32,000 nucleotides of DNA from Halomicronema hongdechloris C2206 (GCF_002075285.3 NZ_CP021983.2:4470001-4502000); one strand, 5' to 3'. Positions 3,408-6,788 are shown, numbered from the stretch's first letter. The notes: a model not told the origin generated them from the letters alone. Translations and numbers: made by a program.

Positions 3408-3842
3408 TCAGAAAACAATCGTCCGTACAGGATGGATTGTGTAGAGCAAACTGACTATCAGATGTTGGATACCATCGAGGCTCGCTAGAATGCGCTTCAC
3501 TTCTGAACGAGTCAAGACAACTGTCAAGCGTTGGGGACGGCTAGCTCGCTCAATATCTTCAAGGTATGGCAGCTCAATATCTAGCACCTGACGCTACAGA
3601 AACAGCAGGGCACTCAGAGCGACCGTTTGGGTCGATGCAGCCACGTGACGCTGAATGGCCAGGTGTGATAAATATGCCCTGATTTCAGGCGCCCCCATAT
3701 CTTTGGGATGTTGCTTGTGATGAAACAGGATGAAATCCCGAATGTAGTAGACATAGGACTTTTCAGTCGCAGGGCTAACGTGCTTGAGCCGAGCCACTTC
3801 TCTGACTTGGTCGAGCAGGCGAGGGGGGTTGGGTGGTGCCAT
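3408..3842 (-). pseudogene. intI: Integron-integrase-like (IntI-type tyrosine recombinase) remnant: in-frame TAG, and truncated before the catalytic domain
   Basis: The translation LLDQVREVARLKHVSPATEKSYVYYIRDFILFHHKQHPKDMGAPEIRAYLSHLAIQRHVAASTQTVALSALLFL ends at a TAG (plus-strand 3594-3596). The frame continues RQVLDIELPYLEDIERASRPQRLTVVLTRSEVKRILASLDGIQHLIVSLLY. This is colinear with the N-terminal ~135 residues of IntI1 (…LLFFYGKVL…RRLPVVLT…LLYGTGMR). Similarity stops at LLY (about 3441), exactly where the first catalytic Arg (GTGMR) should follow, so all R-H-R-Y catalytic residues are absent. Confidence 0.85.
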
Positions 3843-4121
3843 GGTAAACGCATATAACTCCCCTAGATGGGTGCTTATCTGTCACTTTTGACAGATAAGC
3901 ACCCCATTCACCATACTTAACTGCCAGAAGTGACAGATAACACCCTGCCTTCCCGGAGTTATCCGTCAAAAATTGTATGTAAGTTCTGTAAATCCAGGTG
4001 TTATCACCCAAAAGTGACAGATAAGATCCGGAAATGTGGATCTTATCTACCGGATCTGACGCTGAATATATAGTTAGCCCGCTATATCGCAACACAAAAG
4101 GATAGCGGTTAAAGTAATACG
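3843..4121. promoter_or_regulatory. Divergent intergenic region between the intI remnant and the first cassette; attI-like, with repeated TGACAGATAA motifs
   Basis: The position matches attI/Pc in classical integrons. TGACAGATAA occurs at 3889-3898, 3931-3940 and 4015-4024, with a reverse copy TTATCTGTCA at 3875-3884. A GTTRRRY-like heptamer, GTTAGCC, lies at 4073-4079. The functional assignment is inference. Confidence 0.45.
3869..3904. promoter_or_regulatory. Perfect 16-bp inverted repeat GGGTGCTTATCTGTCA-CTTT-TGACAGATAAGCACCC (candidate protein-binding site)
   Basis: The palindrome is read directly from the sequence. It lies 27 bp upstream of the intI-remnant start codon. Confidence 0.7.
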
Positions 4122-4646
4122 GTGCTTAACATTATGCCTGTGAAACAAGAGAATAATCGTCAGAATCGGTTGGGCATATTCCTGTATTATGAGAGTCCTG
4201 CCAACGAAAGGATTTGCGCCTTCCTAAGCCATTGGGAACCAGTTCCATACTGGGGTAAAATTCAAGGAGTCAAGGCAACTCATCAAATTGCATCCAGGCT
4301 CATACCTAAAGAAATGCAGGAAGGTGCAGAATCTTGGCTTATTCTCTATCGTGCAAATGTACCTGGAGAGCTACTTGTTTTACCCTTTCCCGATGAAGAA
4401 ACTCCGTCCAGTCTAAATGACCCACAGAAATTCGGCAATTACCTGTCAGGCCTGTTAGAGTACATTTATGGTGGTAACCGTAACTGGTATCCATATAATG
4501 GCTTTAGAAACCTAATTGAGTATATTCAGCGGGGAAGAACATACTCGTTTCCGCATCCCATACCTCCAAGAAAGTTTCAAGTGGTTCGCTTCGACAGTCC
4601 CCTTGAAGAATTGTTAAAGCAGCCCGAAATCCGTTTCTATGATTAA
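4122..4646 (+). CDS. Hypothetical protein (first segment of the first cassette reading frame)
   Basis: This is a 174-codon ORF in AT-rich DNA with no motif I recognise. It ends at TAA 4644-4646, and the same frame stays open afterwards (see the 4122-5474 entry). Confidence 0.55.
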   Translation: MLNIMPVKQENNRQNRLGIFLYYESPANERICAFLSHWEPVPYWGKIQGVKATHQIASRLIPKEMQEGAESWLILYRANVPGELLVLPFPDEETPSSLNDPQKFGNYLSGLLEYIYGGNRNWYPYNGFRNLIEYIQRGRTYSFPHPIPPRKFQVVRFDSPLEELLKQPEIRFYD

Positions 4647-4841
4647 CAGCAGCGAAAGACTGTCACCAATTTTATACAAGTTAGTGAACGTATCCAACAA
4701 GGTCGTGATGAATTTCTGACATCGATCTTAACGGTAAGAAATGAAGAACAAATAAGACGTCTGATAGAAGACTTTGAAGTAACCCTTCTTGAAGAAGGTC
4801 GGCGTTTATCAGAGCAGGTCGATAAGGTAACCCCGTCTATT

Positions 4842-5315
4842 GTGGAACACTTTGGAGTAATAATGGATGATGAGACGAAGAGTTTTCTTGTATCCGCTGA
4901 AACGGTGTTCCGTTTTGCTGGCGAAAAACTCGCAAATGATTTTGACTACTCCCTATGTGGTTGTGGATTATGGAAATCTGTTGAAAGAGAATTGAACTCA
5001 TCCCTTATTTGGTACTTACGCCGTGTAAGAAATATAGCGGATAATAACAGAAAGCCTATTGCAGACATTAACCCAAGTGCCCGTGTCGATTATGAAGCAG
5101 GCAACGCAACCATAAACCTAAACGAACGCCAAAGAGGTTCTATAGAATTTGAAGGCAAGATGTTGGGAAACATCGAGTGGCTAATTCGTACGGCACAAGA
5201 TAACAATGTCGGCCGAGAGATAAAACCTGTTTTCCAGAATGATCAACAAATTCTCGATTTTATTTTAAGACTAGACGAGCATGGTCTCGCCTACCTTATT
5301 AAGCAGGTACGATAA
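4842..5315 (+). CDS. Hypothetical protein, N-terminal and central part of a HEPN-like domain (second segment)
   Basis: The listed ORF starts at GTG 4842. ATG 4863 is preceded by GGAG at 4853-4856 and is an alternative start. The sequence is predicted helical and ends ...LAYLIKQVR at TAA 5313-5315, immediately before an in-frame IRNGHAH. Confidence 0.55.
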   Translation: MEHFGVIMDDETKSFLVSAETVFRFAGEKLANDFDYSLCGCGLWKSVERELNSSLIWYLRRVRNIADNNRKPIADINPSARVDYEAGNATINLNERQRGSIEFEGKMLGNIEWLIRTAQDNNVGREIKPVFQNDQQILDFILRLDEHGLAYLIKQVR

Positions 5316-5488
5316 ATTAGAAATGGGCACGCTCATATAAAATCGATGAACAAAAATGCTTATGAAAGACTGCGGCTTATTGTTCTTGCACCAGATAATG
5401 ATATTCAAACATCCCTTCTTGGAAGAATTCTCATGATGAAGCGTGCTATGGAAAAATATTGGAATGAATGTTGAAAACAATGGCTATG

Positions 5489-5618
5489 GGCTAACAATCG
5501 GCTTAACCTGACCGCAGGGACTGTGGGGTTTTTCAAGTTTTGCAGCCCGCATCAAGTTTTCTGGTTAATCAAAGTCTGCGCCCCGCAATCCTGCGGCAGG
5601 CTAGCCAAAATGTTAGAC
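5489..5618 (+). other. attC-like recombination site (130 bp imperfect palindrome)
   Basis: The left end is GGCTAAC-AATCG-GCTTAACCTGACCGCAGGGACTGTGGGG. The reverse complement of the right end is GTCTAAC-ATTTT-GGCTAGCCTGCCGCAGGATTGCGGGG. The terminal boxes fit R'' (RYYYAAC) and R' (GTTRRRY; GTTAGAC at 5612-5618). Unpaired extra bases in the left arm resemble extrahelical bases. The site lies directly after the cassette stop codon. Confidence 0.7.
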
Positions 5619-5653
5619 TGCAGAGTATTTCAGCATAAAGGCATTCATGAGGT

Positions 5654-6049
5654 GTGAGAGCTTTGGAAAGAGAAGATCTATGGAAGGAATTTGACAAAAA
5701 TATCGATTTGTACAAGTTCTACTTAGAAATCGTCCTAAAGACAAGCATCTTCATTTTTGGCATCACGGGAGCAATCGTTTCATACTATTTCTCTAATGCC
5801 AGTAAGCCACTGGTCGAATTAAGTCTTTGTCTTCCATTAATTATGAATGCTGGCTTCGCATATCTTTGCTTCAAGGGAGCAAGTTTTGCAGATATTCTAG
5901 ACAGAGATCACGATATATTGTCTGAAGAATTAGGGACAAGGATAGCCTTTACATTTAGTCCTTTACACGAAGTCTTACGGTTGTTTGTTGTTCTTTATGC
6001 CTTGGTATCTATTAGTTTGGGTGTAATATTAGTAACTGATATCGTTTGA
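5654..6049 (+). CDS. Small integral membrane protein, about 3 predicted transmembrane helices, unknown function
   Basis: A 131-aa ORF with a GTG start. Hydrophobic segments are SIFIFGITGAIVSYYF, LVELSLCLPLIMNAGFAYLCF and VLRLFVVLYALVSISLGVILV. It lies in AT-rich cassette DNA. Confidence 0.6.
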   Translation: MRALEREDLWKEFDKNIDLYKFYLEIVLKTSIFIFGITGAIVSYYFSNASKPLVELSLCLPLIMNAGFAYLCFKGASFADILDRDHDILSEELGTRIAFTFSPLHEVLRLFVVLYALVSISLGVILVTDIV

Positions 6050-6074
6050 TCTCCCAAAAGGGGCAAAGCTACAA

Positions 6075-6548
6075 GTGACCGAAACTGTTTACATTGAAAC
6101 TAGCATTTTGGGGTATCTGACAGCTAGGTCAACCAAGAACCTGATATTGGCTGCAAATATGGAAATTACTAAGGATTGGTGGGAATTACGTCGAAATGCT
6201 TTCACTCTCTACACATCAGAGGCCGTTTTAGAAGAAGTGATGCAGGGAGATCCTGAAATCGCTGCTCAACGTCTAGAAATACTGCGTGATTTTCCCCTGC
6301 TCGCGTTGAATCAGGCTGTACAAGGCTTGGCAGCACAGTTTTTAGCCAGAAGCAATTTGCCTTCCAAAGCCGAGGTAGACGCCATCCATATTGCTGCCGC
6401 GACAGTTCACGGCATGGATTATTTGCTAACTTGGAACTGTAGACATATTGCAAATGCTCAAATCCAAGGGAAATTGGCAGAAATTAGTCTTGATTGTGGC
6501 TATGTGCTTCCAGTCCTCTGTACACCGAACGAACTGATGGGAGATTAG
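6075..6548 (+). CDS. PIN-domain protein (VapC-like toxin family)
   Basis: The N-terminus VYIETSILGY supplies the first acidic residue context. EEV supplies a central acidic residue. DAIHIAAATVHGMDYLLTWNCRHIAN matches the PIN C-terminal D..H.A.A...g.d.L.T.N..H signature. Confidence 0.85.
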   Translation: MTETVYIETSILGYLTARSTKNLILAANMEITKDWWELRRNAFTLYTSEAVLEEVMQGDPEIAAQRLEILRDFPLLALNQAVQGLAAQFLARSNLPSKAEVDAIHIAAATVHGMDYLLTWNCRHIANAQIQGKLAEISLDCGYVLPVLCTPNELMGD

Positions 6549-6551
6549 GCG

Positions 6552-6779
6552 ATGTGGAAAGATGAAATTGTTGAAGAAATTCATCGTATTCGCGAAGAAT
6601 ATGCCAAGTCTTTTAACTATGACTTGAATGCAATATTTGCAGACCTACGTAAAAAGCAAGAAGAAAGCGGCAGAGAAGTTGTGACCTTATCGCGTAAGCC
6701 TGGTCTAACAACACGTTGGAGCGGACGGACGAGAGATCTTGGTGAGGAAGCAAAAGATATTAGCCACCGCTCAACTTAG
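6552..6779 (+). CDS. Small partner ORF of the PIN protein (putative antitoxin or cognate factor)
   Basis: ATG 6552 lies 3 nt after the PIN stop codon, which suggests translational coupling. The N-terminus is charged and helical (MWKDEIVEEIHRIREEYAKSFNYDLNAIFADLRKKQEESG). The last ~25 codons run into the attC-like site, so the true C-terminus is uncertain. Confidence 0.6.
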   Translation: MWKDEIVEEIHRIREEYAKSFNYDLNAIFADLRKKQEESGREVVTLSRKPGLTTRWSGRTRDLGEEAKDISHRST

Positions 6780-6788
6780 TCATTAGGC
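6703..6788 (+). other. Second attC-like site (86 bp)
   Basis: The left end is GTCTAAC-AACAC-GTTGGAGCGGACGG. The reverse complement of the right end is GCCTAAT-GACTAA-GTTGAGCGGTGGC. The left arm has one extra G (GTTGGAGCGG versus GTTGAGCGG), like the extrahelical G of attC L''. The right box is ATTAGGC (6782-6788), one mismatch from GTTRRRY. Confidence 0.6.

Follow-up and report, generated by a model that had tools for sequence, protein, structure and literature searches.

A probable relic of a chromosomal integron in the chlorophyll-f cyanobacterium Halomicronema hongdechloris

INTRODUCTION

What is left at a locus where the stump of a recombinase gene faces a short series of genes, some of them broken, interspersed with long imperfect palindromes? 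This question is raised by positions 3408 to 6788 of a 32,000-nucleotide stretch of the Halomicronema hongdechloris C2206 genome (NZ_CP021983.2:4470001-4502000), which we call the window and from whose first nucleotide all positions are counted. In integrons, the integrase IntI recombines the folded bottom strand of the attC site of a circular cassette with the attI site, at a G|TT triplet. Cyanobacteria are among the phyla in which integrons have been reported (PMC4889954, PMC2426708), and pseudogenes make up about one-third of chromosomal intI genes (Nemergut et al. 2008, PMC2426708); our literature search found no paper linking H. hongdechloris to integrons.

An original prediction made from this sequence had read the locus as an integron with an inactivated integrase. 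Our analysis indicates that it is very probably a chromosomal integron, acquired horizontally and now dead. The layout is canonical, with intI, a divergent attI, and same-strand cassettes each ending in an attC site. The prediction has held up in its essentials: intI is truncated at codon 134 and interrupted by a TAG codon, attI could be mapped, and covariance models (CMs) gave hits at both proposed attC sites.

RESULTS

The attI junction

The intI remnant and the plus-strand genes are separated by a divergent intergenic region of 279 bp (3843-4121), where 280 bp had been predicted. Alignment of positions 3835-4130 with the corresponding regions of two relatives, L001 and L002, gave a mean column identity of 84%, and similarity collapses after ...ATATAGTTA / ...TGAATATATAGTTA. 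The conserved stretch comprises 231 bp, from the intI start codon to position 4073, and is common to 27 other contigs. Its last 23 nt (ATCTGACGNTGAATATATAGTTA) were used as a probe of metagenome contigs and yielded 25 further copies, bringing the total to 28 sequences. Except in two duplicate pairs, the bases that follow GTTA differ among the 28, and the sequences past the junction start like R′ boxes (GTTAGGC, GTTAGAC, GTTAGCC, GTTATGC, etc.). In the contigs with the 23-mer, the CM gave 10 attC hits, all of them downstream of this junction and on the same strand. Judged by this comparison, the end of the region is an attI × attC junction, at which one constant platform meets varying cassettes. 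We placed the crossover at G4073|T4074 because similarity ends there and a different sequence lies beyond it in almost all of the 28 sequences. A candidate Pc promoter, identified by consensus scan only, is a sigma-70-like match on the plus strand (TTGACA-18-CATACT, 3888-3917).

The attI region holds five inverted-repeat units in an exact 42-bp register, spanning 3869-4078. They start at 3875, 3917, 3959, 4001, and 4043, and the last one ends at the crossover. Their half-site is TTATCTGTCA / TGACAGATAA; the window has four exact copies of the 10-mer TTATCTGTCA, every one of them in attI. This five-unit architecture is kept in L001, L002, and most of the contigs L089-L113, and in the more distant L005 the last attI palindrome (GTTAGACGTCA...TGATGTCTAA) resembles inverted IntI core sites. 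The units may represent putative accessory IntI-binding sites or operators. Judged by eye, the attI region of L107 (about 240 nt upstream of the junction) looks about 125 nt shorter than that of the other contigs, which would fit the loss of three of the five 42-bp units through inter-unit recombination.

We also scored the state of intI beside attI in L001, L002, and L089-L113, for those contigs with enough upstream sequence. The gene is truncated at codons 2-3, ~9, 13, 19, 41, 73, 134 (the window), or 149, frameshifted (L001, which is the same as L112, and L109), or absent; only L002 has an intact copy. This distribution shows integrase loss to be the rule in the attI clade as sampled. Selection for retention of attI cannot be claimed from it, because the attI end served as the probe, which biases the sample.

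The integrase gene

The minus-strand remnant, proposed to be intI-like up to the residues LLY, matched the integron integrase profile TIGR02249 with an E value of 4.9e-38 over profile positions 1-126 of 315, and PRK15417 with an E value of 4.5e-32. Matches to XerD (E = 2.5e-4) and to archaeal XerA (E = 2e-11) were far below those of the IntI profiles. The best profile being neither XerC/D nor a phage integrase, the remnant does not belong to the Xer or phage type, an outcome on which the prediction had been made to depend. The gene is 81 to 89% identical to cyanobacterial intI genes, and its product is 80.6% identical to the L002 IntI protein, over residues 1-134 only. Both DNA and protein homology to intI of L001, L002, and L099 break off at 3441, right after ...SLLY, and positions 3408-3440 are unrelated read-through outside the true remnant.

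Within the remnant, an in-frame TAG (3594-3596) occupies codon 83, where the relatives have Tyr (LFL*RQVL vs LFLYRQVL). About 190 codons are missing altogether, and with them box I, the IntI-specific patch, and all catalytic residues. The 82-residue minus-strand ORF (open reading frame) at 3594-3842 is a 100% match to an H. hongdechloris C2206 protein labeled “Integrase/recombinase.” By profile and by the state of its reading frame, the remnant is of IntI type, not Xer type, and dead.

The closest intact relative is the 322-residue IntI of L002 (Cyanobacteria bacterium P01_D01_bin.156), 81% identical over the shared part. It has the IntI-specific ALxxKYPNA...W.WQ.VFP patch (ALAHKYPNAHSEWKWQFVFP) and the HxxR...Y motifs; the patch is also found in the relatives P0034 and P0073. 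Other intact genes are those of L005 (360 residues) and L007 (319 residues). A first protein search with the 134-residue query had suggested that all relatives were truncated, none exceeding 233 residues among the matches listed, a notion rejected once intact genes were found through DNA loci.

The attC sites

Sites of the attC type were sought by geometry and by CM. The geometric scan required R″/R′ boxes of suitable form and complementarity, then a spacer and a paired L box; applied to 80 loci encoding relatives of the intI remnant, it yielded typical attC sites (GCCTAAC...GTTAGGC). The first CM, R1, was built on 19 short non-redundant attC sites from other phyla, none from the window or from cyanobacteria, with a hand-drawn R-box/L-box structure. 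Applied to 76 loci, it returned 134 sites at E ≤ 0.001. As 133 of the 134 are on the strand opposite intI, R1 is both specific and strand-aware. The second model, R2, was built on 134 attC sites that R1 had found beside intI genes of other phyla. The window was searched with filters off on both strands (64 kb).

With both models attC2 was the best hit in the window, matched over the full model (R1, 26.9 bits, E = 1.3e-4; R2, 30.8 bits, E = 2e-5). The second-best hit of R2, also over the full model and exactly at the coordinates first proposed, was attC1 (12.5 bits, E = 0.37). In addition, attC1 was the sole hit of the geometric scan in the window; in simulations, zero to one hit of equal score occurred per 1.92 Mb. 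Since the two candidates are the two top hits of an independently trained CM and one of them is the only geometric hit, their resemblance to attC sites is far beyond chance. Thus, the CM check suggested with the prediction came out in its favor, albeit with models of our own: both candidates were matched, on the expected strand. Both have unpaired extra bases on the 5′ arm of the plus strand, which gives the polarity expected if plus is the top strand and agrees with the direction of the ORFs.

The palindromes lie 3′ of ORFs, as predicted, but their fit to the RYYYAAC...GTTRRRY consensus is incomplete. The R″ box of attC1 (GGCTAAC) departs from it at position 2, and the R′ box of attC2 begins with A (ATTAGGC) in place of the conserved G, which attC1 retains (GTTAGAC). 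The sites belong to no dispersed-repeat family within the window, and the attC2 type occurs at a cassette boundary in other genomes. This type (GTCTAAC-AACAC-GTTG[G]AGCGG...CCGCTCAAC-TTAGYC-GTTAGNC) is also present in L085, L002, and 10 metagenome contigs.

The third-best CM hit (25425-25472, 11.9 to 14.5 bits) was rejected: it matches in the R boxes only and lies inside a 654-residue kinase-like ORF (24717-26681). Rfam at gathering thresholds gave no match in the window. Among the other loci, those of the Acidobacteriota L020, L048, L056, and L066 have attC arrays downstream of intI (up to 18 sites, in L066), i.e., the “inverted integrase” arrangement.

The cassettes

The array had been described as two cassettes. 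The attC hits agree with this, but cassette 1 contains one pseudogene and not several ORFs, and cassette 2 is possibly a fusion (features are collected in Table 1).

TABLE 1 Features of the locus and of its left flank
Feature	Position	Strand	Remarks
PcaC-like carboxymuconolactone-decarboxylase pseudogene	2858-3290	+	TIGR02425 E = 2.4e-20, profile 6-122 of 123; in-frame TAG 3146-3148
intI remnant	3441-3842	-	codons 1-134 of an integron integrase; TIGR02249 match; homology to L001, L002, L099 ends at 3441
attI and promoter region	3843-4079	+	R box GTTAGCC 4073-4079; crossover G4073|T4074
Cassette 1	4074-5612	+	starts at the attI crossover, ends at the G of the attC1 R′ box
Cassette 1 gene, pseudogene	4122-5474	+	one frame of ~450 codons, probable ATG at 4134; TAA at 4644-4646 and 5313-5315
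attC1, 130 nt	5489-5618	+	R″ GGCTAAC, R′ GTTAGAC; long imperfect stem; geometric scan and R2
Cassette 2, three ORFs	5613-6782	+	bounded by attC1 and attC2
ORF, 131 residues	5654-6049	+	looks like a small membrane protein; no family found
PIN-domain (VapC-like) gene, 157 residues	6075-6548	+	PF01850 E = 7.5e-5; 23.8 bits (cut-off, 23.6)
Partner ORF, 75 residues	6552-6779	+	4 nt after the PIN gene; last 77 nt inside attC2
attC2, 86 nt	6703-6788	+	R″ GTCTAAC, AACAC, L″ GTTG[G]AGCGG ... L′ CCGCTCAAC, TTAGTC, R′ ATTAGGC

The gene of cassette 1 belongs to a family of 36 proteins (P0121-P0156; loci L081-L088) found at E ≤ 0.001 among the 5.8 billion clusters of the database searched, none of which has a Pfam domain. 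Intact homologues have 436 to 482 residues and are 55 to 59% identical over 96 to 99% of the query. The two stop codons align with Glu and, in the closest homologues, Asn, and the second one precedes by two residues a C-terminal RNxxAH motif (RNGHAH) in which R400, N401, A404, and H405 are invariant in 24 sequences. The motif fits the HEPN pattern Rx4-6H, and the protein has a weak match to a Cas13a profile (E = 0.009). Together, these features support the designation “HEPN-like” for the product, as proposed; what failed to follow is a match of fold, since Foldseek searches of PDB with the whole chain of a confident AlphaFold2 model of homologue P0125 (predicted local distance difference test score, 86.8) returned nothing at E ≤ 0.001.

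One homologue is found in an attC-bounded array (L085; attC, 40.1 bits), where it shares its cassette with a methyltransferase gene, and another in a defense island among RAMP, AAA_15/21, and SLFN_AlbA_2 genes (L086). In L081-L084, the gene of this family follows that of a 566-residue TPR protein. This very rare family, with its invariant RNxxAH motif, is of interest for the discovery of defense systems.

In cassette 2, the PIN protein, whose exact sequence is not on record by look-up, is 89.8% identical to a Kovacikia minuta protein of equal length and 47% identical to a copy annotated as a VapC family toxin. Apart from PIN and the weak Cas13a match, searches of the cassette proteins with PADLOC, Pfam, and NCBIfam found nothing. 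The Kovacikia gene is likewise followed by an ORF of the same length as the 75-residue partner, and because the lengths agree, both genes of the pair appear to be intact. The 75-residue ORF is the presumed antitoxin. The order, with the toxin first, is the reverse of that in most vapBC pairs.

The similarity to Kovacikia also extends to DNA. Window positions 6076-6786, covering the PIN gene, the 75-residue ORF, and the attC site, are 80.6% identical to positions 8002-8712 of L114, from the 1.2-Mb plasmid pA of K. minuta CCNUW1 (NZ_CP083583.1), where the cassette occupies 8001-8714. The Kovacikia attC site is nearly identical to attC2, scores 40.8 bits, and has a canonical R′ box (GTTAGAC), past which the flanking sequence is unrelated to that of the window. 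No intI or attI lies within 8 kb of the PIN cassette on pA, which is thus solitary. The PLSDB gene table for NZ_CP083583.1 has no annotated features. The same module being found in two contexts, with homology ending at the recombination site, attC2 marks a cassette boundary, and because the Kovacikia orthologue has GTTAGAC, the G-to-A change in the R′ box of attC2 is derived.

The 131-residue ORF does not resemble the ORF that precedes the PIN gene in Kovacikia. The 25 nt between the 131-residue ORF and the PIN gene in the window (6050-6074) contain neither a CM hit nor a GTTRRRY box. As only the PIN gene, its partner, and the attC site are common to both organisms, cassette 2 may have arisen by fusion of two cassettes after loss of the intervening attC.

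Genomic setting

The GC content drops from about 0.56-0.60 to 0.38-0.45 across positions ~3800-6900, and of the 12 copies of HIP1 (GCGATCGC) in the window, none occurs within 2918-8463, which agrees with the proposal that the plus-strand ORFs lie in AT-rich, HIP1-free DNA. The host locus has its closest relative in two metagenome contigs, L115 and L116, which share an HtrA-M23 gene pair with the window (M23 peptidase, 78% identical). Synteny stops at ~2708, and at the spot occupied in H. hongdechloris by the integron relic, the relative has a type I-C CRISPR-Cas system (L115, 11204-18867). Low GC, lack of HIP1, and the end of host synteny with CRISPR-Cas in its place all point to foreign origin: by composition and synteny, the island is foreign DNA at a variable chromosomal spot, acquired horizontally. 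The position 3′ of HtrA-M23 looks like a hotspot for defense or mobile islands.

The PcaC-like pseudogene, situated past the host core and before the intI breakpoint, converges on intI and is possibly part of the island. It is separated from the breakpoint by 150 nt of AT-rich DNA with no match (3291-3440). An inverted pair of sequences (2728-2800 and 7050-7127), with a 41-nt core that is 88% complementary and extendable to ~70 nt, brackets the entire low-GC island and the PcaC-like pseudogene. Its left copy (2728-2800) is embedded in a heptamer array, (GGCAGAA)n, at 2667-2728 and 2825-2842. A search for further copies of this 41- to 70-nt repeat in the window found just the two. An inversion or insertion may have left this pair behind, or it may be a dispersed repeat.

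DISCUSSION

Assembly and decay

The history of the locus, if it is indeed a dead integron, would be as follows. Each promoterless cassette would have landed directly downstream of the attI/promoter region, to be read away from intI, and the array (4074-6782) would have been built by two insertions, or by three if one attC was later lost. Going by consensus matches only, the cassettes would have been expressed from a promoter in the attI/intI region. The decay itself is shown by the sequence: a deletion or rearrangement has taken all of intI after codon 134, a nonsense mutation has arisen at codon 83, the first cassette gene has gained its two nonsense codons, and the conserved G in the R′ box of the last attC has been replaced by A. 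The attI region, attC1, the PIN gene, and its 75-residue partner survive. The latter two would form a toxin-antitoxin module able to stabilize the locus. Deprived of a resident integrase, the array would be frozen, with no means of rearranging itself, and cassette 1, which has intact sites on both sides, would be movable only with IntI supplied in trans.

Several points weigh against this history. Recombination between attI and attC is deduced here from sequence, and the search for further attC copies and for an intact intI covers only the 32-kb window. The part of intI that encodes the IntI-specific patch is deleted, and the patch is seen in relatives alone. R1 and R2 are home-made models with a rough calibration, as opposed to the curated model of IntegronFinder; attC1 taken by itself is below the CM threshold (R2, E = 0.37), and R1 gave no match to it. 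The z scores of plain DNA folding are weak (-1.7/-2.4 for attC1 and -0.4/-0.6 for attC2). Weak plain hairpins are normal for attC sites, which are defined by geometry rather than by stability. Lastly, the antitoxin role of the 75-residue ORF is a presumption only.

Other readings of the locus

Did the attI region outlive its integrase because it still has a function? As an unlikely possibility, the ~235-bp five-unit region could be a functional unit in its own right, either an operator array that governs expression of the cassettes or a multisite landing pad for an IntI acting in trans. If so, the many integrase-less attI copies, including that of the window, would be working satellites instead of relics.

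A related and decidedly improbable explanation is that the platform is served in trans by an intact IntI encoded elsewhere or on mobile DNA, with integrase-less attI copies acting as “satellite” landing pads. It would account for the intact state of the attI region and attC1, for the fact that most attI contigs retain the ~235-bp region and its units wholly or for the greater part despite damage to intI, and for the presence of a different first cassette in each contig. However, the contigs were found through the attI end, which makes this retention partly a matter of ascertainment, and several of them are truncated inside the attI region. In addition, the two nonsense codons of the cassette 1 gene and the lost G of attC2 argue for long inactivity. 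No second intI of H. hongdechloris turned up, though its genome was not properly searched for one.

Could the cassettes form a cluster of attC sites lacking integrases (CALIN) that arose by secondary-site insertion or rearrangement and lies beside an intI/attI remnant by coincidence? CALINs are common and mostly have no neighboring intI pseudogene (PMC4889954), and in Kovacikia the PIN cassette stands alone. Yet cassette 1 begins exactly at the attI crossover, with the TTAGCC start typical of an attI-joined cassette, and the orientation and order of the parts, i.e., intI, attI, and cassettes on the opposite strand, are canonical, which makes coincidence very hard to accept. It is barely credible that there is no integron at all, but a phage- or Xer-type recombinase remnant beside a defense or toxin-antitoxin islet with terminators or chance repeats for palindromes: plain hairpin stability is not significant, Rfam is silent, and PIN genes and HEPN-like motifs typify defense islands generally, but the IntI profile is better than that of XerD by 34 orders of magnitude, attI behaves as a recombination junction across 28 sequences, a strand-specific attC model matches both sites at the exact predicted coordinates, and the Kovacikia homology stops at the R′ box.

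Significance

What is new here is an integron relic in H. hongdechloris, integrons in Cyanobacteria and intI pseudogenes being already known. Nothing in our results overturns the current understanding of these elements. For annotation, they document an integron relic in a chlorophyll-f cyanobacterium in which the remnant has so far been labeled just “Integrase/recombinase.” For detection, they indicate that searches keyed to the C-terminal domain of IntI would not tie such loci to an integrase. More useful for integron biology is an exactly mapped attI for a cyanobacterial clade, with an unusual set of five phased palindromes, together with the loss of intI, at differing breakpoints, in nearly all members of the clade sampled.

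Comparison with known systems

The locus that we interpret as a dead integron is most readily compared with sedentary chromosomal integrons whose integrase is dead (“pseudo-integrons”), such as many Xanthomonas arrays. It resembles them by its intI pseudogene and divergent attI, its same-strand promoterless cassettes each with an attC site, its presumed toxin-antitoxin cargo, and its decay by a stop codon and a deletion. In contrast, its host is a filamentous cyanobacterium, its array is very short (two attC sites), its cassettes are themselves decaying, and the catalytic half of its intI is deleted and not point-mutated.

In terms of the IntegronFinder categories, the locus is like a CALIN, with two attC sites whose starts are 1.2 kb apart, within the 4-kb limit, and no working integrase in its vicinity. 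Of the 279 CALINs of Cury et al. (2016, PMC4889954), 15 had an intI pseudogene at a distance of 10 kb or less, in a pseudogene search keyed to the IntI C-terminal domain. Unlike in those cases, the domain targeted by that search is wholly absent here. IntegronFinder would probably report the locus as a plain CALIN, or miss it if attC1 fell below its threshold.

Among the integrons with an intact integrase, that of L002 has the same five-unit attI region and the same 84- to 86-nt attC type, and that of L007, from the uncultured cyanobacterium PMM_0083, has toxin-antitoxin cassettes and attC hits upstream of a 319-residue IntI. Both differ from the locus in having a full IntI of 319 to 322 residues and other chromosomal neighborhoods.

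The attI1 site of class 1 integrons consists of a simple site and two accessory IntI1-binding repeats, DR1 and DR2, with four binding sites in about 65 bp. The attI of the window is similar to it in its G|TT crossover with repeated GTTA-containing motifs upstream. It differs from attI1 by its five inverted-repeat units, set in a 42-bp register over some 210 bp, to which the binding of IntI is a guess.

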